Under the pieces are notes generated by a model. It did not search any database. It was not told where the DNA came from and saw only the letters and a list, made by a program, of their open reading frames with translations. A program made the position numbers and the translations under genes. Positions 2,629 to 64,000 of a stretch of DNA of 64,000 nt are shown piece by piece. Origin of the DNA: Spirochaetaceae bacterium (GTDB taxonomy: Bacteria; Spirochaetota; Spirochaetia; Treponematales; Breznakiellaceae); NCBI GenBank assembly GCA_031262035.1, contig JAISIL010000054.1, positions 23,425 through 87,424 on the forward strand, in the 5' to 3' direction. Position 1 is the first letter of the stretch. Each line of letters begins with the position of its first letter.

Positions 2629-4599
2629 TTACTTTCCGGTGGGTTTAAGCCTCAGATACATATACCGGGAATTTGTCCAGTTCGGAACCGGGTCGGTATA
2701 GGGATCGTCAATGCTCGGATACCCTGTCCAGTAGTAAGTGTCCATACAGGTGAATACATTGAATGAGCAAAGCGGAATTTCGAACATATCATCAAGGGCG
2801 ACTTTAAGCCACCTTGTTCCAAAGTCCACGCCTGCTTCAAGGTCATTCATGTCTGTTGTAAGCATAGCATCAATAATCTTGTCGGTTTCGGGGCTCTTCC
2901 AGCGGCCTGAATTCCGTCCGGATTGTTCCTGCCCAATCGGCACATACTGATTGGAATGGAAATACTGGAGGAAGTAGGAAAGGTCGGGGTGGCCGCCCCA
3001 GGTTTCGATGTTCCACTGAAGGTATGCATCAAAGTCGCCGGGCCTGGTGTAGGCGCCGAAGTCATTGCTAATCAAGAGTGTTGCATCAATACCGAATTCC
3101 TGCCAGAGTTCTACAACCATTGCCGCCAGGCGGTTCTGGCTGGGTTCATGGTCGCCCTGCCCAAGCAGTGTAATCTTGAAGGGCTTGCCGTCTTTGAACT
3201 GCCATTTCTTATCGGCGCCGCGAACCATGCCGCCCTTAATCATCAATTTTTCTGCTGCATCAAGGTTCTGTCCCCACCAGCCAAGGCCGACATATTCTTT
3301 AATCTTATCAGGGTCTGTCGGAACCATATCGCCGTGCATTTTGCGGGCTTCGGTAGCAATCTTCAGGGCCATATCTTTGTCGTAGGGCTTCACCTTTGAG
3401 CCGTCGCCCAGGTCAATCTCATAGTTTTCAAGATAGGATTCCATCGGTTGATGATAATACTGAGGATACATTCCCGTAGGCGGAACGTGTATCGGCGAAA
3501 TAGTGATAGCGCCACGGTAGGATGCCATTGCAAGACGGGTCATATCCAAGGCAAGGGTGAGCGCCCAGCGGACGTCCTTGCTGTTAAGGCCGGGGCGTTC
3601 ATTGTTAATAACAACGGCTACCTGGGTTGGATCCGGATGTCCCCAGGGGAAGTTGGGGAACCAGGTTGCAGTGGTCGGGTTCTGTTTGCGGAGCTGAATG
3701 GCGCCTTCAACAGCGATGTCGTGAATAACATCGAAGTTATGGCGTGTCTGGTTCATAACTTTCTGGTCGCTGGTGCCGCCTCTGATATACATTGCGTATT
3801 TCGGGGCCTGTTCCAGGCTGCCAAGAAGGGCCAATGTGGTCCTTTGCCAGTCATCGCGTTTTTGCCAGAGATACCAGTTTCCGTTCGGGTCATGTGAATG
3901 AAGCGTATACGGGCCAAGGGAAACAGGAGGATTGAACTTATAGGTAGTAATATCGGCCTGTTTTTCAAAGATATGCTTGGGCATGATGAAGCAGGCGCCC
4001 CAGCGAACGATAAAGTTCGTATGGAAACGGGAGTCTGCCTTGTTGAGCGCAAAATGAACTTCAAAGTCATTAACTTTGGTCACTTTTTTGACAGAAACAC
4101 GGAAGGGAGCCGTATAGGCCATGTTGTCATTGGCCATCTGTGCTTCTACCGTGTAAATAAGGTCGTCAGCGGTGAACTGAACGCCGTCGCTCCAATAGAT
4201 ACCCGAGCGCAGTTTAACTGTCATTTCAGTAAAGTCTGCATTGTAGATGGGGTCTTCTGAGGCAAGAGCGTTTTCCCAAACTCCCTTAACACCGGCATCC
4301 GGGTCGATATACCACAGCGTGTCGAGTGCAAGCTGCTGAAGCCCGCCCTGGTAGGTATCATCCCAGCCTGACCATCTGTTAAAATAGTCCGGCGGGTTGG
4401 TATTCTGCCCGGGGTTTTCAAGAATGATTGTCTGGTTCCGGGGAACATTTGCCCCGGCAATCATTTCCGAACCGGCGCTTGCACTGGAAGCTGCCGGTGC
4501 TGCTGTAGAAGCAGCGCTTGTAGATGCTTTTGAACAAGCGCTCATAATAAGCGCGAATGCTAAAAGCACGATTCCGAGAATGGAAATCGCTTTTTTCAT
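2629..4599 (-). CDS. ABC transporter substrate-binding lipoprotein, family 5 (peptide/nickel type)
   Basis: 656 aa. Signal peptide with lipobox (LIMSAC). First gene of the transporter operon, with size and composition typical of SBP family 5. Confidence 0.8.
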
Positions 4600-4713: not shown

Positions 4714-5325
4714 TTAGTTTACTTTCAAAGTTAAGTAATAAAAGAACATATTAAATAATTCCTTATAATCCAAATCACTCGGGTTATTTTTTGTAAAGTG
4801 TTTTGCTGGATACTTATCAAAATTATTTATAAATTCACTATACTGGTGTTCTTCTACTACTGTTTCATAAGTGTTATTCTGTTCAATGCTTATGGCATTT
4901 GGTAGTTTATGTGAAACTTTATTCTGGAACATATCGACTGTTTTAGTCGATATTTCTCCTCCAAGCACGAGAAATAATTCATAATAAAATGCGAAATGAC
5001 ATACTTCATGGGCCAAAAAGGCTTTTATAAAGATATTCCTTAAATCTTGAGTCATATTTGTGTATTTCCTGGATGAATCAATGTAAATAATAAATGTACA
5101 GCCTTGTCTGCCTGGTGTATAGACACTGTCATCTGACAAAATACCAACTGCTGCTAAATTTCTCGGCAAATCAGCTTCATGAACTACTACTGTAAAAAAT
5201 TCACGAGCATTTTTGTTTGTCTGACCACCAAAGTCCCCATCCACACAATAAGCAACCTGATTAGTATCAAATTGAGAAAAAATAGTTGTTATAAGTTGCT
5301 TAAATGTTACTGCCTGAAGTTTCAT
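4714..5325 (-). CDS. Hypothetical protein with an HExxH zinc-metallopeptidase motif (possibly ImmA/IrrE-like)
   Basis: 203 aa with FLAHEVCHFAF. The gene is markedly AT-rich relative to its flanks. Its ATG overlaps the stop of the upstream small ORF (ATGA). Confidence 0.45.
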   Translation of the reverse strand: MKLQAVTFKQLITTIFSQFDTNQVAYCVDGDFGGQTNKNAREFFTVVVHEADLPRNLAAVGILSDDSVYTPGRQGCTFIIYIDSSRKYTNMTQDLRNIFIKAFLAHEVCHFAFYYELFLVLGGEISTKTVDMFQNKVSHKLPNAISIEQNNTYETVVEEHQYSEFINNFDKYPAKHFTKNNPSDLDYKELFNMFFYYLTLKVN

Positions 5326-6637: not shown

Positions 6638-9187
6638 ATGAATATAAAAACTTACACGGTTAAACCGAAACTACCGGCTACTTTGAAGCCGCTCGAAGAG
6701 ATTAGCCAGAACCTCTGGCTCTCCTGGAATTATGACGCTGTTCAGCTTTTTATCCGCCTGGATTATGATGCTTGGCAAAAATCGGAACAGAGTCCGGTGA
6801 AGACCCTCGGCTATGCCAGCCCGGAAAGGCTTGCCGCTATGGCCAAGGACGATTCCTATCTATCAGCCTTAAAAGAAGTTTATTCCCGTTTTCAACGCTA
6901 CAAAAAGGGCGAAACCTGGTATAAGGGCTCAAAAAAGGATATGGTAGGCTATTTTTCAATGGAATATGGCATTGATGTCTCGCTTCCTATCTATTCTGGC
7001 GGTCTTGGCATGCTTTCCGGCGACCACATGAAGACATCGAGCGATATGGGGCTTCCCCTTATTGGCATCGGCCTTCTGTATCGCGAGGGCTATTTTAAGC
7101 AGCTCCTCAATAGTGATGGCTTTCAGCAGGAAGCTTATCCTCAGAACGACTGGTATAACATGCCCGTTACCCTCAAGACAAGGGGCGGGAAGAACGGCGG
7201 CGAGGCTATCAAGATTACTGTTGATATGGCAGGCCGCCAGGCGGTGGCGCAGATTTGGGAAGTCAAGGTTGGGCGCACTTCGCTCTATCTTCTCGATACC
7301 AATATTGATGATAATCCGCAGGATCTGCGTGATATTACCTCGGCGCTCTATGGCGGCGATAAGGAAACCCGCATTCGGCAGGAGATTCTTCTCGGTGTCG
7401 GCGGCATTCGGGCGCTGCGGGCGCTGGGAATAAACCCTGCGGCGACACACATGAATGAAGGGCATTCGGCGTTTTTGGGTCTTGAAAGAATTCGTGAGAT
7501 AATGCAGGAGAAGGGCTTTTCCTTTGCACAGGCGAAAGAAGCCGTTTGGCCGACCAATATTTTCACGACGCACACACCGGTGCCGGCAGGGAACGAACGC
7601 TTTGACATAGCCCTTATGGAAAAATACATGAAAGGCTGGTGCGATATTCTTAAGATTTCCTGGCACGATTTCCTGGCCCTTGGCCGGGTGAACCCCAACG
7701 ACGACCACGAGACCTTCTGCATGACCGTTTTGGCCTTAAAACTTTCCGCTTACTCGAATGGTGTGTCCCGGCTCCACGGCTTTGTTTCCCGTGATATGTG
7801 GAAAAACCTCTGGCCGGGGCTTCCTCTTGATGAAATACCTATTGGGCATGTGACCAATGGCGTGCATCCTCGCAGTTGGATTTCCAACCCGATGCAGGAC
7901 CTGCTCGACCGTTACTTTGGCCCTCGTTTTTATGATGAGCCGACGGACCTGGAGATATGGGAGAGAATGGACCGGATTTCTGATGAAGAACTCTGGCGCA
8001 GCCACGAGCGCCGGCGCGAGCGTCTTGTTGCCTTTGCCCGCGACCGCGTTAAGCAGGAGATGACCCGTAATGGCACTACCGAAAAGCGCCTGAAGGAAGC
8101 GCAAGACGCTCTTTCTCCCTATGTGCTCACCCTCTGTTTTGCCCGTCGTTTTGCCACTTACAAGCGCGGCAATCTGCTTTTACGCGACCCGGAAAGGCTG
8201 ATAAAGCTTTTAAGGGATAAAGACCGCCCCGTGCAGTTGATTTTTGCAGGCAAGGCCCACCCGCAGGACCTTCCCGGTAAGGAACTCATCCGCGAAATTA
8301 TTCACTTTGCCAAAGAGCACGGTGTTGAAAACCGCATTGTCTTTATCGAAAACTATGATATGACCGTGTCCCGCTACCTTGTTTCCGGCGCCGATGTCTG
8401 GCTCAATACGCCGCGGCGGCCCCTCGAGGCTTCGGGCACATCCGGTATGAAGGCATCGATGAACGGTGTTCTCAATTGCTCTATTCTGGACGGCTGGTGG
8501 GACGAGGCCTACACGCCCGATGTTGGTTGGGCAATCGGTCATGGCGAACAGTATGTAGACACCAACCTGCAGGACGAAATTGAAAGCAAGGCCCTCTACG
8601 ACATTCTGGAAAACGAAATTATTCCGCTGTTCTACAACCGCGGCCGCGACGGCCTTCCCCGTGATTGGATTAAGATGATGAAGGCCTGTATGCGGACGAT
8701 TAGTCAGAGCATGTCGACCCATCGTATGTTGATGGACTACTCGAATATGTTCTATCTTCCCGCTCTGAAAAATTATAAGCATATGGTAAAAGATGATTAT
8801 GCCGAGACAAAGTCCCTTGCCGCATACTTCGAGAAGCTTCGGGGCGCCTGGAATAACATCAAGTTTATCAAGGTAGATACCAATGCCAAACCGGTTATGC
8901 AACGCGGCGATATTCTTACCGTAAAGGCCTATGTTGAACTTGCCGGCCTTAACCCTGATGATGTTTGTATAGAAGTCTACCACGGCGGTATTTCCGGCCA
9001 GAGCCACAACATTGAACATGCTGTGCATAACGAGATGAAGTTTTCCGGCCAGGAAGGCAATGCCTGCTGCTTTGTTGCAAAAGTAGAATGCGAAGCAACC
9101 GGCGTCCAGGGCCACAGCGTCCGCATCTTACCCAAACACCCTTCACTGGCACACCCGTATCGCAGCGGCTTTGTAAAGTGGGCGTAA
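6638..9187 (+). CDS. glgP: Alpha-glucan (glycogen/maltodextrin) phosphorylase, GT35
   Basis: 849 aa. PLP-lysine region EASGTSGMKASMNGVLNCSILDGWWDE. The N-terminus is typical of the alpha-glucan phosphorylase subfamily. Confidence 0.9.
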   Translation: MNIKTYTVKPKLPATLKPLEEISQNLWLSWNYDAVQLFIRLDYDAWQKSEQSPVKTLGYASPERLAAMAKDDSYLSALKEVYSRFQRYKKGETWYKGSKKDMVGYFSMEYGIDVSLPIYSGGLGMLSGDHMKTSSDMGLPLIGIGLLYREGYFKQLLNSDGFQQEAYPQNDWYNMPVTLKTRGGKNGGEAIKITVDMAGRQAVAQIWEVKVGRTSLYLLDTNIDDNPQDLRDITSALYGGDKETRIRQEILLGVGGIRALRALGINPAATHMNEGHSAFLGLERIREIMQEKGFSFAQAKEAVWPTNIFTTHTPVPAGNERFDIALMEKYMKGWCDILKISWHDFLALGRVNPNDDHETFCMTVLALKLSAYSNGVSRLHGFVSRDMWKNLWPGLPLDEIPIGHVTNGVHPRSWISNPMQDLLDRYFGPRFYDEPTDLEIWERMDRISDEELWRSHERRRERLVAFARDRVKQEMTRNGTTEKRLKEAQDALSPYVLTLCFARRFATYKRGNLLLRDPERLIKLLRDKDRPVQLIFAGKAHPQDLPGKELIREIIHFAKEHGVENRIVFIENYDMTVSRYLVSGADVWLNTPRRPLEASGTSGMKASMNGVLNCSILDGWWDEAYTPDVGWAIGHGEQYVDTNLQDEIESKALYDILENEIIPLFYNRGRDGLPRDWIKMMKACMRTISQSMSTHRMLMDYSNMFYLPALKNYKHMVKDDYAETKSLAAYFEKLRGAWNNIKFIKVDTNAKPVMQRGDILTVKAYVELAGLNPDDVCIEVYHGGISGQSHNIEHAVHNEMKFSGQEGNACCFVAKVECEATGVQGHSVRILPKHPSLAHPYRSGFVKWA

Positions 9188-9195
9188 AAAACAGT

Positions 9196-9239
9196 GGTTT
9201 CGACAGGCTCAACCACCGGAGGTTGAGCCTGTCGAAACC
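9196..9239. repeat. Perfect 19-bp-stem palindrome of the GGTTGAGCCTGTCGAAACC element, both arms present
   Basis: GGTTTCGACAGGCTCAACC-ACCGGA-GGTTGAGCCTGTCGAAACC, starting 9 nt after the glgP stop codon. Single arms recur at 55533, 60306 and 63497. Confidence 0.85.
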
Positions 9240-9240
9240 T

Positions 9241-9269
9241 ATTCGTGTTTATTTGTGCCATTCGTGGTT
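9241..9269. repeat. Half copy (right arm only) of the CACGAAT-heptamer element
   Basis: ATTCGTGTTTATTTGTGCCATTCGTGGTT. Confidence 0.6.
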
Positions 9270-10329
9270 ACTTTTTATTCTATTTCTAATTACTCCAGTA
9301 TTTCTATTTTCTCAAAACCTCACCCTCTCCCAAAAAGCCGGGCAGGTTATCCTTGCTGCTATTGATGGCAGTAAAACGCTGGCCCCTTACATGAAAAATA
9401 TTCTCGAGGAGGCAAGCCCCGGCGGCATTCTTCTTTTTCGCTATAACCTTAATGCCTCGCCTGCAGAAAATGCTATTTATATAGAAGAAATTAGCAAGGT
9501 GGTAGCGAATAAGGCTGCCGGAATCAGGCCTTTTATGGCGGTAGACCAGGAAGGCGGCACGGTGCAGCGTTTTGTTGGGGGTTATGCACGGCTTCCCAAT
9601 GCCAGTTCCTATGCTGCTTCCCCGGCGGCCGACCCCCTTGCTGCCTTACAAAGGGATGCAGCCAAGGCCGCAAAGGACATGCAGGCAATCGGAATAAACT
9701 TAAACCTTGCCCCCTTGGGTGAGGTTCTTCGTGCGGAAAATGAGCCATTTTTAAAAGAACGGTCTTATGGGCCGGACACTAATTTTGTCTACAATGCCTG
9801 CACAAGATTTATCAATGCCATGCAGGCGAATGGTATTATCTGTGTGTTAAAGCACTTCCCCGATTCCGGTTCCGGCGACCCCCATAAGGGCGAACAGCAT
9901 GTGCCATACAGCAAGGCCGAATTGACCGGGATTGCAGCGCCAATGATTAAACTATTGCACAACAATGAAGCTTCTGCCGTAATGGTTTCACATGCAGTGA
10001 TAGACCGGATTGACGATACACAAGCGGGAAGCATGTCGGAAAAGGTAATCACCGAATGGCTGCAAGGGGAAATAGGCTTTAATGGCCTTATCATTGCCGA
10101 TGATTTTTCTATGGCAGGCGCCTTGGCCGGTTCTGCAGCAGCAAAAGACCCAAATGCTGCTGCCATAAAGGCCCTTGCTGCCGGTGTAGACATGGTCATC
10201 TGCTGGCCCCCCGACATAAAAAAACTCCACAAGGCCATTATCAATGCAGTCCACACCGGAATATTACCCGAAGAACGGCTTGACAATGCGGTATCTAAGA
10301 TTATAAAGTTAAAAGTAAACCACGAATAG
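9253..10329 (+). CDS. Glycoside hydrolase family 3 beta-N-acetylhexosaminidase-like protein (secreted)
   Basis: KHFPDSGSGDPH and ADDFSMAGA motifs. The start is uncertain. No ATG precedes the conserved N-terminus except 9088, which lies inside glgP. The in-frame TTG at 9253 gives a signal-peptide-like MCHSWLLFILFLITPVFLFSQ. The last codons (NHE*) lie in the repeat at 10318. Confidence 0.7.
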   Translation: MCHSWLLFILFLITPVFLFSQNLTLSQKAGQVILAAIDGSKTLAPYMKNILEEASPGGILLFRYNLNASPAENAIYIEEISKVVANKAAGIRPFMAVDQEGGTVQRFVGGYARLPNASSYAASPAADPLAALQRDAAKAAKDMQAIGINLNLAPLGEVLRAENEPFLKERSYGPDTNFVYNACTRFINAMQANGIICVLKHFPDSGSGDPHKGEQHVPYSKAELTGIAAPMIKLLHNNEASAVMVSHAVIDRIDDTQAGSMSEKVITEWLQGEIGFNGLIIADDFSMAGALAGSAAAKDPNAAAIKALAAGVDMVICWPPDIKKLHKAIINAVHTGILPEERLDNAVSKIIKLKVNHE

Positions 10330-11808: not shown

Positions 11809-11900
11809 ACTGGAATATTAAAAAAGAATCACAAAATCTATTAAGTTTTTTTCTGCTTTTCCGATAACTTAAAATGAGGTGTGCAAGCAAAGTGCAAGAC

Positions 11901-25518: not shown

Positions 25519-25770
25519 GTAATTCATAATTCAATCCTTGTCGTACCCTTTTCCTCTCCCGCACCTACCTCCTGATGCTGGAATTCAGTATTACAACGCT
25601 CAGCGTGGGGCAGAGGGAGCAGGACAATCTTTTGTGAGGGCATTTGAAAGTTGCTGTCATCGCTTTGTCGGCAGGCAACATATCAAGACGCCGCCGAAGG
25701 CGGAACTTTCAACAGCCCGAACAAAAGATTGTCCTGCTCCCCCGTACGCAAGGCTTGAATTATGAATTAC
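25519..25770. other. 252-bp nested inverted-repeat element (candidate structured RNA or MITE)
   Basis: Outer arms 25519-25546 and 25744-25770 (16 perfect bp, then 10 more with one mismatch and one bulge). Inner perfect 21-bp arms 25615-25635 and 25721-25741. Further pairing TTGAAAGTT/AACTTTCAA and the apical hairpin CCGCCGAAGGCGG. A 68-nt unpaired segment lies on the left side only. Confidence 0.6.
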
Positions 25771-25816: not shown

Positions 25817-26710
25817 ATGCTTGCACTTATTGCTATGCTCTTTACAGCTCTTTTGTGGAGCACTTCGGGGCTTTTTATCAAACTTTTGGACTGGAATCCA
25901 ATGTGTATTGCAGGCGGCCGCAGTATTCTGGCCGCCCTTTTGATATTTATTGTGCGCCTAACACGGCGAAACAAGATTGAAAAGCGTTCTCTGCAATCCT
26001 GGGGCTGGACCATTGCAGCGGGGGTCGCTTATGCCCTTACCATGATATTTTTTGTAGTGGCAAACCGTATGACAACATCTGCCAATGCCATTCTTTTGCA
26101 ATATACAGCACCGGTATGGGCTGCCCTTTTAGGCTGGCTTGTTCTAAAGGAACGCCCCAGTTGGCAAAATTGGTGCAGCCTAAGCCTTGTGTTCCTTGGC
26201 ATGATGCTCTTTTTCCGCGACGGCCTTGTCCTTGCCGCTTCTGCGGAAAATGGCCCGGCGGCTGCCACCATGACATTGGGCAATGTGATTGCACTTGTTT
26301 CCGGCATCAGCTTTGGGGCAAACGCCGTCTTTATGCGAAAGATAAAAGAAGGCGACCCTGCCGACGCCATGCTGATTGCGCATATCATAACCGGCCTTGT
26401 AAGCCTGCCTTTCTTTTTCGATACCATGCCGGCCTTTACCGGGCCCTCTATTGCAAGCATACTGTTCATGGGCTTTTTACAAATAGGCCTTGCAAGCCTT
26501 CTTTTTTCCTACGGCATAAAAAGAATCCCCGCAGTCCAGGCCATGCTCATCTGCATGATAGAACCACTGATGAACCCCGTCTGGGTCTTCCTGGCCATAG
26601 GCGAAACCATAAGCGCCTCCACATTAATCGGTGGTATGATAATTATCCTGGCAGTCCTCTTCTCGCAAATACGGGGCTCAAGGCAAAATCATTTAACTTT
26701 GAAATCATAA
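25817..26710 (+). CDS. EamA/DMT-family transporter
   Basis: 297 aa, about 10 TM helices, two EamA-like halves. Confidence 0.8.
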   Translation: MLALIAMLFTALLWSTSGLFIKLLDWNPMCIAGGRSILAALLIFIVRLTRRNKIEKRSLQSWGWTIAAGVAYALTMIFFVVANRMTTSANAILLQYTAPVWAALLGWLVLKERPSWQNWCSLSLVFLGMMLFFRDGLVLAASAENGPAAATMTLGNVIALVSGISFGANAVFMRKIKEGDPADAMLIAHIITGLVSLPFFFDTMPAFTGPSIASILFMGFLQIGLASLLFSYGIKRIPAVQAMLICMIEPLMNPVWVFLAIGETISASTLIGGMIIILAVLFSQIRGSRQNHLTLKS

Positions 26711-47776: not shown

Positions 47777-47823
47777 GCGGATAGTATAGCATAAATTTTA
47801 TTTTTATGCTAGAATAAGAAAAT

Positions 47824-47883
47824 CTCACGCAAAGCCGCAAAGGCGCCAAGGTTTTTCTTCGCGACTTTGCGCCTTTGCGTGAG
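47824..47883. repeat. CGCAAAG-type palindromic element, copy 1
   Basis: CTCACGCAAAGCCGCAAAGGCGC...GCGCCTTTGCGTGAG. Confidence 0.8.
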
Positions 47884-47904
47884 CTTATTCTAATGGAGGT
47901 TAAG

Positions 47905-51581: not shown

Positions 51582-51660
51582 CTCACGCAAAGGCGCAAAG
51601 ACGCAAGGTTTCGATTTGATTGCTTATTGTAACCTTTGCGCCTTTGCGGCTTTGCGTGAG
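51582..51660. repeat. CGCAAAG-type palindromic element, copy 2 (between oadA and oadB)
   Basis: CTCACGCAAAGGCGCAAAGACGCAAGG...CCTTTGCGCCTTTGCGGCTTTGCGTGAG. Confidence 0.8.
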
Positions 51661-54628: not shown

Positions 54629-55500
54629 GGGCAGGGCGAGCCCTGCCCCTACGGGCGGGCAAAGCCCGCCCGTCCGAGACGGTTTGCCATATTATTTTTT
54701 TATTATGCGCCATCGTCTCAATCCTTTGCGTTATCCTCATCTGCATTTTTCTTTTTGCCAATGCACTGCCTGCATTCCGGAAAATTGGACTTGTGCAATT
54801 CCTTTTAGGCAGGGATTGGTCGCCTTCGGATACGCCGCCTGCCTTTGGCATCTTACCTATGATACTGGGGAGTGTGTATGTTACGATTGGTGCTCTGGTA
54901 GTAGGTGTGCCTATAGGTATTTTGTGTGCAGTCTTTTTGGTTAAGACCTGTCCGAAAAAACTTTACCGAATAGTAAAACCGGGAATTGACTTGCTTGCCG
55001 GTATCCCCTCCGTGGTCTACGGCTTTTTTGGTATGGCAGCCATCGTGCCGCTTTTTGGAAACAGTATTCTCTCTGCCTCTATTCTGTTGGGCATAATGAT
55101 TCTTCCTACGGTAATTGGCCTTTCGGAAAGTGCAGTTCGTGCAGTAAATGAACAGTATTATGAAGGGGCTTTGGCACTGGGGGCGGGGCATTACCGTGCA
55201 GTTTTTTGCGTAGTGCTCCCTGCGGCAAAATCCGGTGTGCTGGCGGCAATTGTATTAGGCCTGGGGCGTGCCATCGGGGAAACAATGGCCGTGATTATGG
55301 TTGCCGGAAACCAGGCACGGATGCCGCTGTCTCTGTTAAAGGGGGTGCGAACAATGACGGCCAATATTGTAATAGAAATGGGCTATGCAACTGGGCTTCA
55401 CCGTGAGGCGCTTATTGCAACCGGGGTGGTATTGTTTGTGTTTATATTGATTATCAATGTTAGTTTTTCTGTGCTAAAACGGGGGAATAATCATGATTAA
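54613..55500 (+). CDS. pstC: Phosphate ABC transporter permease PstC
   Basis: Six-TM permease with RAIGETMAV. The only in-frame start is the ATG at 54613, which overlaps pstS by 16 nt. Codons 5-21 are therefore the double-hairpin repeat. Confidence 0.75.
   Translation: MECNVGAGRALPLRAGKARPSETVCHIIFLLCAIVSILCVILICIFLFANALPAFRKIGLVQFLLGRDWSPSDTPPAFGILPMILGSVYVTIGALVVGVPIGILCAVFLVKTCPKKLYRIVKPGIDLLAGIPSVVYGFFGMAAIVPLFGNSILSASILLGIMILPTVIGLSESAVRAVNEQYYEGALALGAGHYRAVFCVVLPAAKSGVLAAIVLGLGRAIGETMAVIMVAGNQARMPLSLLKGVRTMTANIVIEMGYATGLHREALIATGVVLFVFILIINVSFSVLKRGNNHD
54625..54673. repeat. Double-hairpin element at the pstS/pstC junction
   Basis: GTAGGGGCAGGG-CGAG-CCCTGCCCCTAC then GGGCGGGC-AAA-GCCCGCCC. 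Confidence 0.85.
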
Positions 55501-55588
55501 CCGCGAACCACGCAAACCACGCGAACACCACCGGTGGTTGAGCCTGTCGAAACCACTTGTCAAAGTCATTTCGACAAGCTCAATGACC
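55499..55588. repeat. Composite repeat at the pstC/pstA junction: AACCGCGAACCACGC-type unit plus an imperfect GGTTGAGCCTGTCGAAACC palindrome
   Basis: AACCGCGAACCACGCAAACCACGCGAAC (55499-55526). GGTGGTTGAGCCTGTCGAAACCAC (55533-55556) pairs with TTTCGACAAGCTCAATGACC (55569-55588), which contains the pstA ATG. Confidence 0.8.
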
Positions 55589-56395
55589 GTTTCAGAACTG
55601 TTGTTACATATAGTAGTCTGGGCTTCATTCTTTATTACGATTACTGTTCTGCTGTATATCATTGGTTTTATTCTTGTGAAAGGGCTGCCGTATGTAAGAC
55701 CCTCATTATTTGCCTTGCATTATACCAGTGAAAATGTGTCATTGTTGCCGGCGCTTGTGTCTACAGTATTTATAACACTTATTTCGCTCCTTATAGCAGT
55801 TCCCCTGAGTGTGGGTGCGGCGGTGTATCTTGTTGAGTATGCAAAAAGGGGGAATCGGTTTGTGTCGCTGATTCGTATTACTACAGAAACCTTGGCCGGC
55901 ATTCCCTCCATTATCTACGGCCTTTTTGGTATGCTCTTTTTCGTGAGTTTTCTTCACTGGGGCTATTCGGTGCTGGCAGGAAGCCTTACCCTTTCGATAA
56001 TGATACTGCCCCTGGTTATCCGTTCTACAGAAGAAGCTTTGCTGGCCGTCTCGGATACCTGGCGGGAAGCTTCGCTTGCCCTGGGAGCCGGTAAGTTACG
56101 AACAGTGTTCAAGATTGTTCTTCCTGCGGCAAGGCCGGGCATACTTGCCGGTATCATTCTTGCTATTGGCCGCATCGTCGGCGAGACAGCCGCTCTTATC
56201 TACACGGCAGGCACCGTAGCGCAGATACCCTTTGGCCCGCTGCAATCGGCACGAACTCTGTCTGTGCACATGTATGCACTGTCCAGCGAAGGCCTGCATA
56301 CCGGTGAGGCATACGCTACAGCGGTAGTGCTGATGCTGCTCGTGATTGTAATTAATTCAATTTCAGCACGGCTTGCAAGAAATATAACAATATGA
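55583..56395 (+). CDS. pstA: Phosphate ABC transporter permease PstA
   Basis: GRIVGETAAL motif. The ATG at 55583 (MTVSELLLHIVVW...) is preferred, because the track start at 55493 would translate the repeat. Confidence 0.75.
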   Translation: MTVSELLLHIVVWASFFITITVLLYIIGFILVKGLPYVRPSLFALHYTSENVSLLPALVSTVFITLISLLIAVPLSVGAAVYLVEYAKRGNRFVSLIRITTETLAGIPSIIYGLFGMLFFVSFLHWGYSVLAGSLTLSIMILPLVIRSTEEALLAVSDTWREASLALGAGKLRTVFKIVLPAARPGILAGIILAIGRIVGETAALIYTAGTVAQIPFGPLQSARTLSVHMYALSSEGLHTGEAYATAVVLMLLVIVINSISARLARNITI

Positions 56396-59820: not shown

Positions 59821-60576
59821 TTGAGTAAGATATATGTTGTAGAGGATGATGATAATATTCGGGGGATGCTTTTGTATGCTTTGAAGTCGTCGGGGTTTGA
59901 GGCGGAAGGTTTTGTTGATGGCACATCATTCTTTGATGTACTGAAAACCAAGCCTTGCGATTTGGTTTTGTTGGATATTATGCTTCCCGGTGAAGATGGG
60001 ATTATGATACTAAAAAAAATCAGGCGCAGCAGTTCGCGGATTGCTGGTGTTTCACTTGCTGATATACCGGTAATTATGCTCACTGCAAAAGGCGCTGAAT
60101 ACGATAAAATAAAAGGCCTCGACCTGGGAGCCGACGACTACATCACCAAACCCTTTTCGGTAATGGAAGTAATTTCCCGCATAAAAGCCGTGCTAAGACG
60201 CAGCACAACTAACACAAAAAATAATGCAGAGGAAATTGAGCTGAGTGTTGGAATCATCACCTTAAACACTGAAAAACGCTCAGTATCGCTAACAACTCCC
60301 CCCTCGGTGGTTGAGCCTGTCGAAACCACCACCACTGAAACCACCACCCCCAATCTTACCTACAAAGAATTTGAACTCCTCGCCTGCCTGATGCGAAACA
60401 CCGGTATTGTGCTAAGCCGCGATAAATTGCTCGAAAAGGTCTGGGGACAGGATACCATGATTGATACACGCACCGTTGATATGCACATAAAAACACTTCG
60501 CCAAAAACTCGGCCTTGCCGGGGGGCAGATAAAAACAATCCGCAATGTCGGTTATAAAATTGAGGTTGAACAATGA
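59821..60576 (+). CDS. phoB: OmpR/PhoB-family response regulator carrying an in-frame repeat insertion
   Basis: Receiver (VVEDDD...LLDIMLPGEDG...TKPF) plus a winged-helix domain (LTYKEFELL...VGYK). TTG start. Located next to the pst genes. Confidence 0.7.
   Translation: MSKIYVVEDDDNIRGMLLYALKSSGFEAEGFVDGTSFFDVLKTKPCDLVLLDIMLPGEDGIMILKKIRRSSSRIAGVSLADIPVIMLTAKGAEYDKIKGLDLGADDYITKPFSVMEVISRIKAVLRRSTTNTKNNAEEIELSVGIITLNTEKRSVSLTTPPSVVEPVETTTTETTTPNLTYKEFELLACLMRNTGIVLSRDKLLEKVWGQDTMIDTRTVDMHIKTLRQKLGLAGGQIKTIRNVGYKIEVEQ
60306..60330 (+). repeat. Single arm of the GGTTGAGCCTGTCGAAACC element inside the response-regulator CDS
   Basis: GGTGGTTGAGCCTGTCGAAACCACC is translated as VVEPVETT. The first 24 nt are identical to 55533-55556. 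Confidence 0.85.
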
Positions 60577-63232: not shown

Positions 63233-64000
63233 ATGCGAACACTTGCAAAGGAAATAGCCGCTGCCGCAAAAGAGCGGCCTGATGATATATTGGAACTCAA
63301 AGGATGGGTTCATCGTATACGGGACATGGGCGGGGTTAATTTTGTCATATTACGCGACCGCTCAGGCCTTGTTCAATTGGTCTTTAACGAAAAACCGCTG
63401 GACGAGGCGGGCAATCCCCTGACCCTCGAATCGGCTATTGTTGTGCAGGGAAAGGCAGCCTTAAACCCCAAGGCGCCCGGCGGGGCGGAAGTGCAGGTGG
63501 TTTCGACAGGCTCAAGCACCGAAGGGCTTACTATTCTGAATAAGGCTCACGGGGATTTACCCTTTCAGGTGAATGGCGATATGACAAAGATGGGGCTCGA
63601 GTCAATTCTTGATAATCGGGCGCTCTCTGTGCGCAATCCGAAAATCCGTTCGATTTTTCATGTGCAATCTACTATTATAGAAGCATTTTCAAGCTATCTG
63701 CGGAGTCAGGATTTTACTGAAATCAAGACAACAAAGCTGGTCGGTGGCGGTACCGAGGGGGGAACAAATCTTTTTGCTGTCGATTATTTTGACCGCAAGG
63801 TCTATCTTGCCCAGTCTCCCCAGTTGTATAAGCAGATTATGGTAGCAAGCGGGCTTGAGCGGGTCTTCGAGGTAGCTCCGGCCTTTCGTGCCGAAAAACA
63901 TGATACGCCGCGCCACTTGAACGAATATATTTCGCTCGATGTCGAGATGGGCTTTATCGATTCTGAACAGGATTTGATTAAGCTTGAACGGGGCCTTCTC
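63233..64000 (+). CDS. aspS: Aspartate--tRNA ligase, archaeal/type-2 form (3' end beyond window)
   Basis: My own translation from the ATG at 63233: MRTLAKEI...VHRIRDMGGVNFVILRDRSG..., class II motif FRAEKHDTPRHLNEYISLDVEM. The ORF runs off the right edge. Confidence 0.8.
   Translation, partial: MRTLAKEIAAAAKERPDDILELKGWVHRIRDMGGVNFVILRDRSGLVQLVFNEKPLDEAGNPLTLESAIVVQGKAALNPKAPGGAEVQVVSTGSSTEGLTILNKAHGDLPFQVNGDMTKMGLESILDNRALSVRNPKIRSIFHVQSTIIEAFSSYLRSQDFTEIKTTKLVGGGTEGGTNLFAVDYFDRKVYLAQSPQLYKQIMVASGLERVFEVAPAFRAEKHDTPRHLNEYISLDVEMGFIDSEQDLIKLERGLL
63497..63520 (-). repeat. Single arm of the GGTTGAGCCTGTCGAAACC element (opposite orientation) inside aspS
   Basis: The reverse complement, GGTGCTTGAGCCTGTCGAAACCACC, differs by one base from the 60306 copy. 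It is translated as VSTGSSTEG. Confidence 0.8.

Follow-up and report, generated by a model that had tools for sequence, protein, structure and literature searches.

In-frame colonization of genes by palindromic repeats is usually seen as peculiar to Rickettsia and a few other bacteria. The Rickettsia palindromic elements (RPEs; Ogata et al. 2000, 2002) are found between genes as well as in frame in unrelated housekeeping genes, and a later account places nearly half of the copies in open reading frames (ORFs), with the added peptides at positions compatible with the protein fold (PMC10969869). RPE-1, the best-known family, is given there as about 100-150 bp long, with a conserved peptide in one frame, and as restricted to Rickettsia (PMC10969869). 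Here, a much smaller repeat is described from a 64-kb stretch of a metagenome-assembled genome (MAG) of a Spirochaetaceae bacterium, hereafter the window, where a 25-nt hairpin unit lies in frame inside the gene of a PhoB-like response regulator. Like the RPEs, this unit occurs both between genes and in frame within housekeeping genes, but it differs from RPE-1 in its length, its host and the use of at least four reading frames and both orientations, so that it has only the behavior in common with RPE-1 and does not belong to that family. The same behavior is thereby extended to gut and rumen spirochaetes and to cultured Actinomycetota, with a unit whose loop is common to several phyla.

Short repetitive extragenic palindromic (REP) sequences tagged with GTAG or CGTC have been reported in frame in Opitutus terrae, Thioalkalivibrio and R. 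conorii, together with some transposable elements of the miniature inverted-repeat type (MITEs) (PMC10969869, PMC3733652). An earlier note on this DNA, made from the letters alone, knew of no description of in-frame insertion for repeats of this kind, and these documented cases amend it. The GTAG-tagged elements, namely REPs, bacterial interspersed mosaic elements (BIMEs) and REP doublets forming hairpins (REPINs), bear a conserved unpaired GTAG (GYAG/GTGG) tetranucleotide at one hairpin end and are mobilized by REP-associated tyrosine transposases (RAYTs) of the Y1, HUH type (PMC3733652, PMC3116915, PMC6006769). The unit described here resembles them as a multi-copy imperfect palindrome of 20-40 nt that forms a stem-loop, and it is likewise found in inverted doublets and in alternating clusters with two stem types. 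It also sits just outside genes or between convergent genes, shows compensatory changes in the stem and has occasional intragenic copies in frame, as REPs do. In contrast, its conserved part is an 11-nt loop, whereas most REP loops have 2-5 nt and REP families are defined by their stems, and its stem has 4-7 bp instead of the 6-13 or 8-9 bp of the REP superfamilies.

A second group, the CGTC-tagged REPs, includes RPE-4 and RPE-6 and has a terminal unpaired CGTC or TGTC tag, an 8-9 bp stem beginning with A/T pairs, a loop of 4-5 nt and a CCA tail; Spirochaetes and Bacteroidetes are among its phyla, most copies are head-to-head dimers, intragenic copies exist and no dedicated transposase is known (PMC3733652). 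Our units are also short hairpins without a known dedicated transposase, and those of Bacteroidota bear an outer TGTCA, but the anatomy is different, with an 11-nt loop that itself contains TGTC, a stem of 4-7 bp and no CCA tail. MITEs, such as Correia and ERIC, are defined by terminal inverted repeats derived from an IS element and by a target-site duplication. They are non-autonomous and occur in many copies, of which most are intergenic and about 10% lie elsewhere, and they can give rise to in-frame fusions. Spirochaetes are rich in MITEs, and MITE clusters rarely cross genus boundaries (PMC11602168). The units of the window, on the other hand, are below MITE size and have neither terminal inverted repeats beyond the hairpin nor a clear target-site duplication, and the core of the hairpin crosses phyla. 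The behavior as such is already known; the hairpin family, its reach across phyla and its frequency in essential genes appear to be undescribed. The core sequence, in DNA or RNA spelling, and the translated strings gave only chance primer matches in the searchable literature, and the core was not found in the supplementary files of the REP survey (PMC3733652).

As a hairpin, the unit combines an 11-nt loop that hardly varies, GAGCYTGTCGA, with a stem of 4-7 bp that covaries. It is probably an unclassified, selfish, dispersed element of the REP/BIME/REPIN kind, whose insertions into coding sequence survive in frame in turns, tails and linkers of proteins. In the regulator, the 25-mer GGTGGTTGAGCCTGTCGAAACCACC lies at 60306-60330 on the forward strand, within the ORF 59821..60576, and is translated as VVEPVETT (V163-T170) directly after S162, at exactly the position and in the frame first read from the letters. 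The description of the protein as PhoB-like was also right: Response_reg (E = 8.8e-25) and Trans_reg_C (E = 3.4e-25) were found by Pfam, which places it in the OmpR/PhoB family, and its PDB matches are RegX3, RpaA, PrrA, PhoP and MtrA.

Between the conserved R-x-V strand and L179-T180, the regulator has 23 residues, compared with 8 in 20 of the 21 homologs aligned, and the excess of about 15 residues claimed in the earlier note (about 23 against about 8) was thus borne out. The insert is located between the strand ending in ...KRSVS and the conserved L179-T180-Y-K-E-F-E-L-L, where 20 of the 21 homologs have a gap. None of the relatives has a loop of the same length; the only exception to the gap is homolog P0057, in which 8 unrelated residues are inserted at this turn. 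Excess residues are also seen against the solved structures of RegX3 (2oqr) and RpaA (9dvt). As read from the sequence, the 45-nt insert is made of the hairpin unit and a partial duplicate of its 3' part, a duplication too short to be scored by Tandem Repeats Finder. Since C runs flank the insert on both sides, its junctions are ambiguous by a few bases.

Nothing suggests that the regulator gene is other than intact, and no sign of a pseudogene was seen, in agreement with the reading frame being preserved. Every family-invariant column is retained, among them the receiver residues aligned at D9, D52, T88 and K110 and the winged-helix residues aligned at R200, W208 and R217; the gene shares an ATGA overlap with the kinase gene downstream, and it is annotated by both NCBI and JGI. 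The two annotations differ in the start, since NCBI gives 251 aa (MDR0908885.1, Spirochaetaceae bacterium MAG) and JGI 236 aa from an internal ATG. The JGI start (skipping 59821-59865) would deprive the receiver of its first strand and acidic pocket, and the TTG at 59821 fits the family alignment. About 6 extra residues, RRSSSRIAGVSLADIP, are also present in the receiver (residues ~68-82, nt ~60022-60066) relative to most homologs; they are unrelated to the repeat and partly present in the closest relative, P0002.

An AlphaFold2 model of the regulator, built on the homolog alignment (mean pLDDT 86.7), gives residues ~158-180 as coil with block pLDDT values of 58 and 78, compared with 92-95 for strands and helices in the effector domain. 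According to this model, the insert would be a disordered surface loop, a low-confidence coil in a retained fold. One unit and its partial 3' duplicate would have been inserted at the beta-hairpin turn ahead of the winged-helix domain's first helix, and the insert would survive because its length is divisible by three, no stop codon occurs in the frame used and the turn is solvent-exposed. The protein would merely gain a disordered loop of Thr, Pro, Val and Glu, which is most likely neutral for function. The regulator with and without its loop would offer a test case for the tolerance of the winged-helix domain. The peptides predicted at the inserts are VVEPVETTTTETT for the regulator and VVSTGSSTEG for the aspartyl-tRNA synthetase (AspRS) described below.

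It is hardly credible that the loop is ancestral and resembles the repeat by chance, or that it is an artefact of assembly or sequencing. The turn is variable, as P0057 illustrates, and the window comes from a MAG, but the identity to other copies is 25/25 nt with a chance expectation of zero, 20 of the 21 homologs have no such loop, the frame of the same gene continues on either side, and the same phenomenon is found in cultured isolates with RefSeq annotation.

A scan of the window allowing up to three mismatches found four copies of the 25-mer, all with at most one mismatch, at 9193-9217 (-), 55533-55557 (+), 60306-60330 (+) and 63496-63520 (-), when none was expected from shuffled sequences; the last of these had not been listed in the earlier note. 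The 19-nt core GGTTGAGCCTGTCGAAACC has a further copy at 9221-9239 (+), and six occurrences of the 15-nt core TTGAGCYTGTCGAAA were counted where 0.24 were expected, with a variant at 55569-55583 (-) among them. Folding energies, computed throughout as single-stranded DNA, were -5.5 kcal/mol (z = -2.8) for the single unit in the regulator, with a 7-bp stem and an 11-nt loop, and -24.2 kcal/mol (z = -10.5) for the inverted doublet at 9193-9239. This doublet contains the palindrome at 9196-9239 that had been reported to share the repeat, and that proved real, with arms of 22 nt that are 95% complementary. It begins 6 nt past the stop codon of an alpha-glucan phosphorylase-like gene and lies just upstream of the likely start of a GH3 gene.

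The copy at 55533 indeed matches the repeat, as the earlier note had stated, but is not clearly intergenic: NCBI (MDR0908881.1, 300 aa) and JGI alike call pstA from 55493, where an ATG overlaps the pstC stop and GGGGGA stands 8-13 nt upstream. Since the doublet lies in the ORF from 55493, it encodes about 20 residues, RWLSLSKPLVKVISTSSMTV, placed in the N-terminal cytoplasmic tail of PstA ahead of the first membrane helix. Its two units have different stems, each of them self-complementary (GGTGGTT...AACCACC in unit A and GGTCATT...AATGACC in unit B), and the whole doublet folds with -18.5 kcal/mol (z = -6.1). In the archaeal-type AspRS, the copy adds VVSTGSS at 63497-63517 in the orientation opposite to that of the regulator, and the insert corresponds to a 7-residue gap in the Thermus and Pyrococcus/Thermococcus enzymes (PDB 1n9w, 3nel and 1b8a). 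The stem of this copy is broken by one G-to-C substitution and folds no better than shuffles (z = +0.5), which suggests decay after insertion. The same selective filter as in the regulator would account for the copies in AspRS and PstA and for those in linkers and variable loops of housekeeping enzymes elsewhere. Coordinates are collected in Table 1.

Table 1. Location of the hairpin units, of their host genes and of related features in the window and in loci of other genomes (L numbers).
Feature	Location	Strand	Details
Host gene, OmpR/PhoB-family response regulator	59821..60576	+	TTG start, 251 aa; Pfam, NCBI MDR0908885.1
Hairpin unit in the regulator gene	60306..60330	+	stem GGTGGTT (60306-60312) pairs with AACCACC (60324-60330); loop GAGCCTGTCGA (60313-60323)
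45-nt (15-codon) insertion in the regulator gene	60301..60345	+	P161-T175, PSVVEPVETTTTETT; homolog alignment
Second copy of the 3' part of the unit	60337..60348	+	GAAACCACCACC; first copy 60322-60333
Inverted doublet in pstA (55493..56395)	55532..55589	both	unit A 55532-55556 (+), unit B 55565-55589 (-)
Hairpin unit in archaeal-type aspartyl-tRNA synthetase	63496..63520	-	CDS from ~63233, running off the window
Inverted doublet, near-perfect palindrome	9193..9239	both	sole intergenic copy in the window
MetH copies, three Treponema	L010 922..3741; L011 374..2842; protein P0121		
Specibacter cremeus lysA, diaminopimelate decarboxylase	L092 1811..3826		array ~2850-3035; ~4.5 repeats, ~60 residues
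Flavobacterial composite	L020 ~300-470; L025 ~4870-5040; L040 ~7270-7440		flanks unrelated
Half-units (examples), 5' halves	L008, L099, L102, L109, L117		end inside the loop
Half-units (examples), 3' halves	L006, L016, L044, L101		start inside the loop

The hairpin was characterized across genomes by collecting the central 11-mer GAGC[CT]TGTCGA over 0.94 Mb of fetched loci. A total of 271 units was obtained, with flanks that are complementary far above shuffled partners and with many stem sequences, among them GGTC/GACC (17 units), GATT/AATC (6), CCCT/AGGG (5), CATT/AATG (4) and CACT/AGTG (4). In 67 distinct units, with stems unconstrained by the query, each of the four inner stem pairs is paired in 85-91% and shows 24-30 double-sided changes. 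The covariation score is 0.583, compared with 0.26 in shuffles, none of which reached 0.583 in 500, and with 0.15 or less in slid registers. The three outer stem pairs are lineage-specific extensions, and the flanks follow the lineage, with (C)GGT in Treponema, CCGCT in Actinomycetota and an outer TGTCA in Bacteroidota. When units were detected by stem complementarity instead, the loop was again nearly invariant, save for C/T at position 5, and the reversed-sequence control gave almost no hits.

An exact search of the 19-mer core in GTDB with one genome per species (596 Gb, both strands) found it in at least 120 stretches, against about 4 expected by chance by arithmetic for 596 Gb. Judged by these matches, the hairpin is not lineage-specific, with the family present in at least six phyla. 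Among the matches listed are about 20 Treponema MAGs from gut and rumen, along with Micrococcales and Propionibacteriales, some of them cultured (Arthrobacter, Isoptericola, Cryobacterium, Nocardioides and Specibacter), as well as Bacteroidota (Flavobacteriaceae, Chitinophagaceae, Bacteroidales), Anaerolineae, Latescibacterota and a few Proteobacteria. The 19-mer is also present on 6 viral contigs; in two related ones from IMG/VR (L121 ~6930-6950 and L122 ~11880-11900) it lies between genes of the tail module, HK97-gp10-like and tail completion gp17-like. Treponema saccharophilum pTS1 has one decayed copy only. Carriers with complete genomes include Xylanimonas sp. McL0601 (NZ_CP187527), Promicromonospora sp. 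Marseille-Q5078 and Specibacter cremeus.

The units are found singly, as inverted doublets and in alternating BIME-like clusters. On the megaplasmid of Arthrobacter sp. ERGS1:01 (NZ_CP012477.1), a record with 11 matching places, a cluster between convergent genes (L128 19960-20200) alternates units with GATC stems on one strand and units with GGTT stems on the other with a period of 47 nt, the same arrangement as in classical BIME clusters of enterobacterial REPs. Actinomycetota also have tandem arrays, whose periods are 23, 26, 30, 45 and 51 nt. In Muricauda, Leeuwenhoekiella and Flavivirga, a composite element of about 115 nt is shared, in which two inverted units stand between the outer inverted repeats GTCTAAAAAG...CTTTTTAGAC. 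It resembles a MITE built around two units, and composites with such outer repeats were seen in Flavobacteria only. A conserved native locus was considered for these flavobacterial copies and rejected, since the similarity stops at the edges of the element, as in a mobile composite.

Units deep within open frames were found in Treponema loci in genes of a DEAD-box helicase, an ABC ATPase, MurD, GuaA (GMP synthase) and a macro-domain protein, all identified by eye from the loci and not by homolog alignment; the MurD case is a matter of the reading frame alone, because the PDB alignment stops short of the C-terminal copy. For methionine synthase (MetH), alignment of the linker with relatives confirms the insertions in two Treponema MAGs, which have the unit between the homocysteine and the pterin domains. 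One reads as a doublet, AVVEPVETTNNNGHFDKLNDQ, and the other as a single unit in the opposite orientation, GVVSTGSTT. No nearly identical pair of MetH orthologs, one having the insert and one lacking it, was found, the best relative being 60% identical. In a third Treponema MetH (P0121), the unit lies in a different linker, where the contig end reads ...MVVSTGSTT; the contig terminates exactly in the unit, and this suggests that the repeats break assemblies.

One case of recent origin comes from a cultured isolate, Specibacter cremeus C1-50, whose lysA contains an in-frame array with a period of 45 nt, DQVSTGSTTGDRACR four times plus one more unit. Its product aligns to LysA of M. tuberculosis in two blocks about 65 residues apart, and it has 542 aa (RefSeq) compared with 485 aa in Specibacter sp. 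RAF43, which has no array. Many Arthrobacter orthologs of 482-496 aa, about 80% identical overall, lack it as well. The array is direct evidence that a gene of essential biosynthesis in a living isolate received an insertion recently in its lineage. The LysA of S. cremeus is named only 'family protein' by NCBI, possibly because of the insert. With the copies in AspRS, pstA, the Treponema housekeeping genes and the actinobacterial lysA, the likeness to RPEs drawn in the earlier note from the regulator was upheld as regards behavior.

Five of the six frames of the unit are stop-free, the sixth reading GGT GGT TGA, and four of these five are in use across the cases found (VVEPVETT, WLSLSKP, VVSTGSTT and GFDRLNHR); the frame WFRQAQP was not seen in any real gene among them.

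Other explanations of the insertions were weighed against these data. Beside full units, truncated half-units are enriched 2.6- to 4-fold, and some units are hybrids whose stems are not complementary (GGTT...GACC). Both may be due to breakage and joining in the loop or to mere decay, and the enrichment is modest and cannot separate the two. Along with the irregular insert lengths (21, 45, ~60 and ~180 nt), the partial duplicate in the regulator insert and the lack of both a transposase and a target-site duplication in the searches, they would fit templated patches, left by filler copied from another unit in break repair, by hairpin-induced slippage or template switching, or by gene conversion between units, none of which would need a dedicated enzyme. 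We regard this as unlikely, since such patches leave the loop invariance across phyla, the complementarity of the stems and the regular alternating clusters unexplained, and the half-units could equally be decayed copies.

Many copies adjoin gene starts or stops, and two of the four loci of the window lie within the pst-pho cluster of about 7 kb. The hairpin might then be a cis-acting RNA or DNA signal of the host, with a loop bound or cut by a conserved factor and with intragenic copies kept for regulation through mRNA stability, processing, translation pausing or supercoiling. A nearly invariant loop over six phyla on a covarying stem is the usual pattern for structures that a conserved factor reads, and the scans found no associated transposase. 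However, two loci out of four in one operon is not significant (about p = 0.07 by estimate, for a pre-chosen region), and the units stand in both orientations relative to the mRNA in genes, so that no single RNA strand is common to them. The AspRS copy has no stem, copy number and position vary between congeners, and the tandem clusters and the composites with unrelated flanks follow the fashion of mobile repeats. No Rfam family supports a signal either: with Rfam 15 at gathering and permissive thresholds, no family matched the units in the window and 26 loci, where only spurious microRNA-like hits far under the threshold were obtained. A host signal is therefore quite unlikely. To our knowledge, the unit does not match hammerhead or other small ribozymes, integron attC, parS, CIRCE, CRISPR repeats, the 5' end of tmRNA or sequencing adapters, all of which were considered and dropped, nor any linker known to us.

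The element preferred here, a selfish REP-like hairpin, would have spread through a trans-acting enzyme that reads the folded single strand through its loop, for example of the HUH/Y1 type, or a hairpin-specific nuclease or recombinase. Such an enzyme is suggested by the invariant loop on a free stem, since HUH/Y1 transposases and some recombinases read folded single strands. Several observations weigh against a REP-like element. Y1_Tnp was absent from 10 small ORFs of the window by Pfam, a HUH...Y motif scan of about 1 Mb of loci did not find the HUH/Y1 signature, and no transposase family was enriched by Pfam among 142 ORFs lying within 600 nt of a unit; a RAYT flanked by repeats was not found in the ORFs and loci scanned either, although a single-copy gene is easily missed in such a sample. 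No clear target-site duplication was seen at the regulator, AspRS or pstA copies. No GTAG-type tag is common to the hairpin family (the GTGG of the Treponema-type stem is paired and not conserved elsewhere), and the CGTC tag is also absent. A classical REP is confined to its lineage and co-evolves with its transposase, whereas the loop of this hairpin is the same in six phyla. The core also spans Actinomycetota, and a term search of the survey of HUH enzymes returned no mention of Actinobacteria. In addition, five open frames out of six are ordinary for a 25-mer of such composition by our estimate, and give no argument for coding adaptation. As for the regulator itself, its nearest database relatives share about 64% identity with it and mostly have about 225 aa, and because the best of them is only 64% identical and no empty site is available, the age and the exact boundaries of the insertion cannot be fixed.

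A bolder version, which we hold as tentative and rather doubtful, is that the GAGCYTGTCGA hairpin is the recognition site of a nuclease or recombinase, other than a RAYT, that is present in many phyla, and that it defines a new superfamily of miniature elements routinely colonizing coding sequence. If so, it would be a pan-bacterial counterpart of the RPEs, giving loop and linker peptides to an aminoacyl-tRNA synthetase, MetH, LysA, MurD, GuaA and response regulators. Should the behavior of the small unit in spirochaetes and Actinomycetota hold up, the 11-nt hairpin loop would be read by a widespread factor. Insertions into loops and linkers of essential proteins would then have a common source that has been overlooked, which would bear on protein evolution. 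This source would also be relevant to annotation, as in the LysA of S. cremeus, and to breaks in metagenome assemblies.

The pst-pho cluster of the window comprises genes for a PstS-like binding protein, PstC, PstA, a hybrid kinase, a single-domain receiver, PstB, the regulator and a PhoR-like kinase. In a Treponema MAG (L029), the 2.1 kb between two doublets contains ordinary genes. A weak match to the Flavo-1 RNA (RF01705) lies in the same locus (2856-2932), about 100 nt from a doublet and outside the phylum described for the motif, and a match above threshold lies in Foetidibacter (L014 6895-6976), about 115 nt from a doublet. A link between Flavo-1 and the hairpin was rejected, since this is a separate motif about 100-140 nt from the units and the proximity is probably coincidental.

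The hairpin units are bordered by low-complexity tracts, and similar short-period tracts border the units in Bacteroidales loci (L027, L078 and L120). Other short repeats rich in CGCAAAG/CACGAA-type motifs, such as inverted CGCAAAGGCGCAAAG pairs, are present in the window at 9240-9275, 47804-47903, 51586-51648 and 55500-55530. Finally, an inverted repeat of 38 nt, 89% complementary and with its arms 51 nt apart, is located at 25615-25741 in the gap upstream of the ORF 25817..26710.

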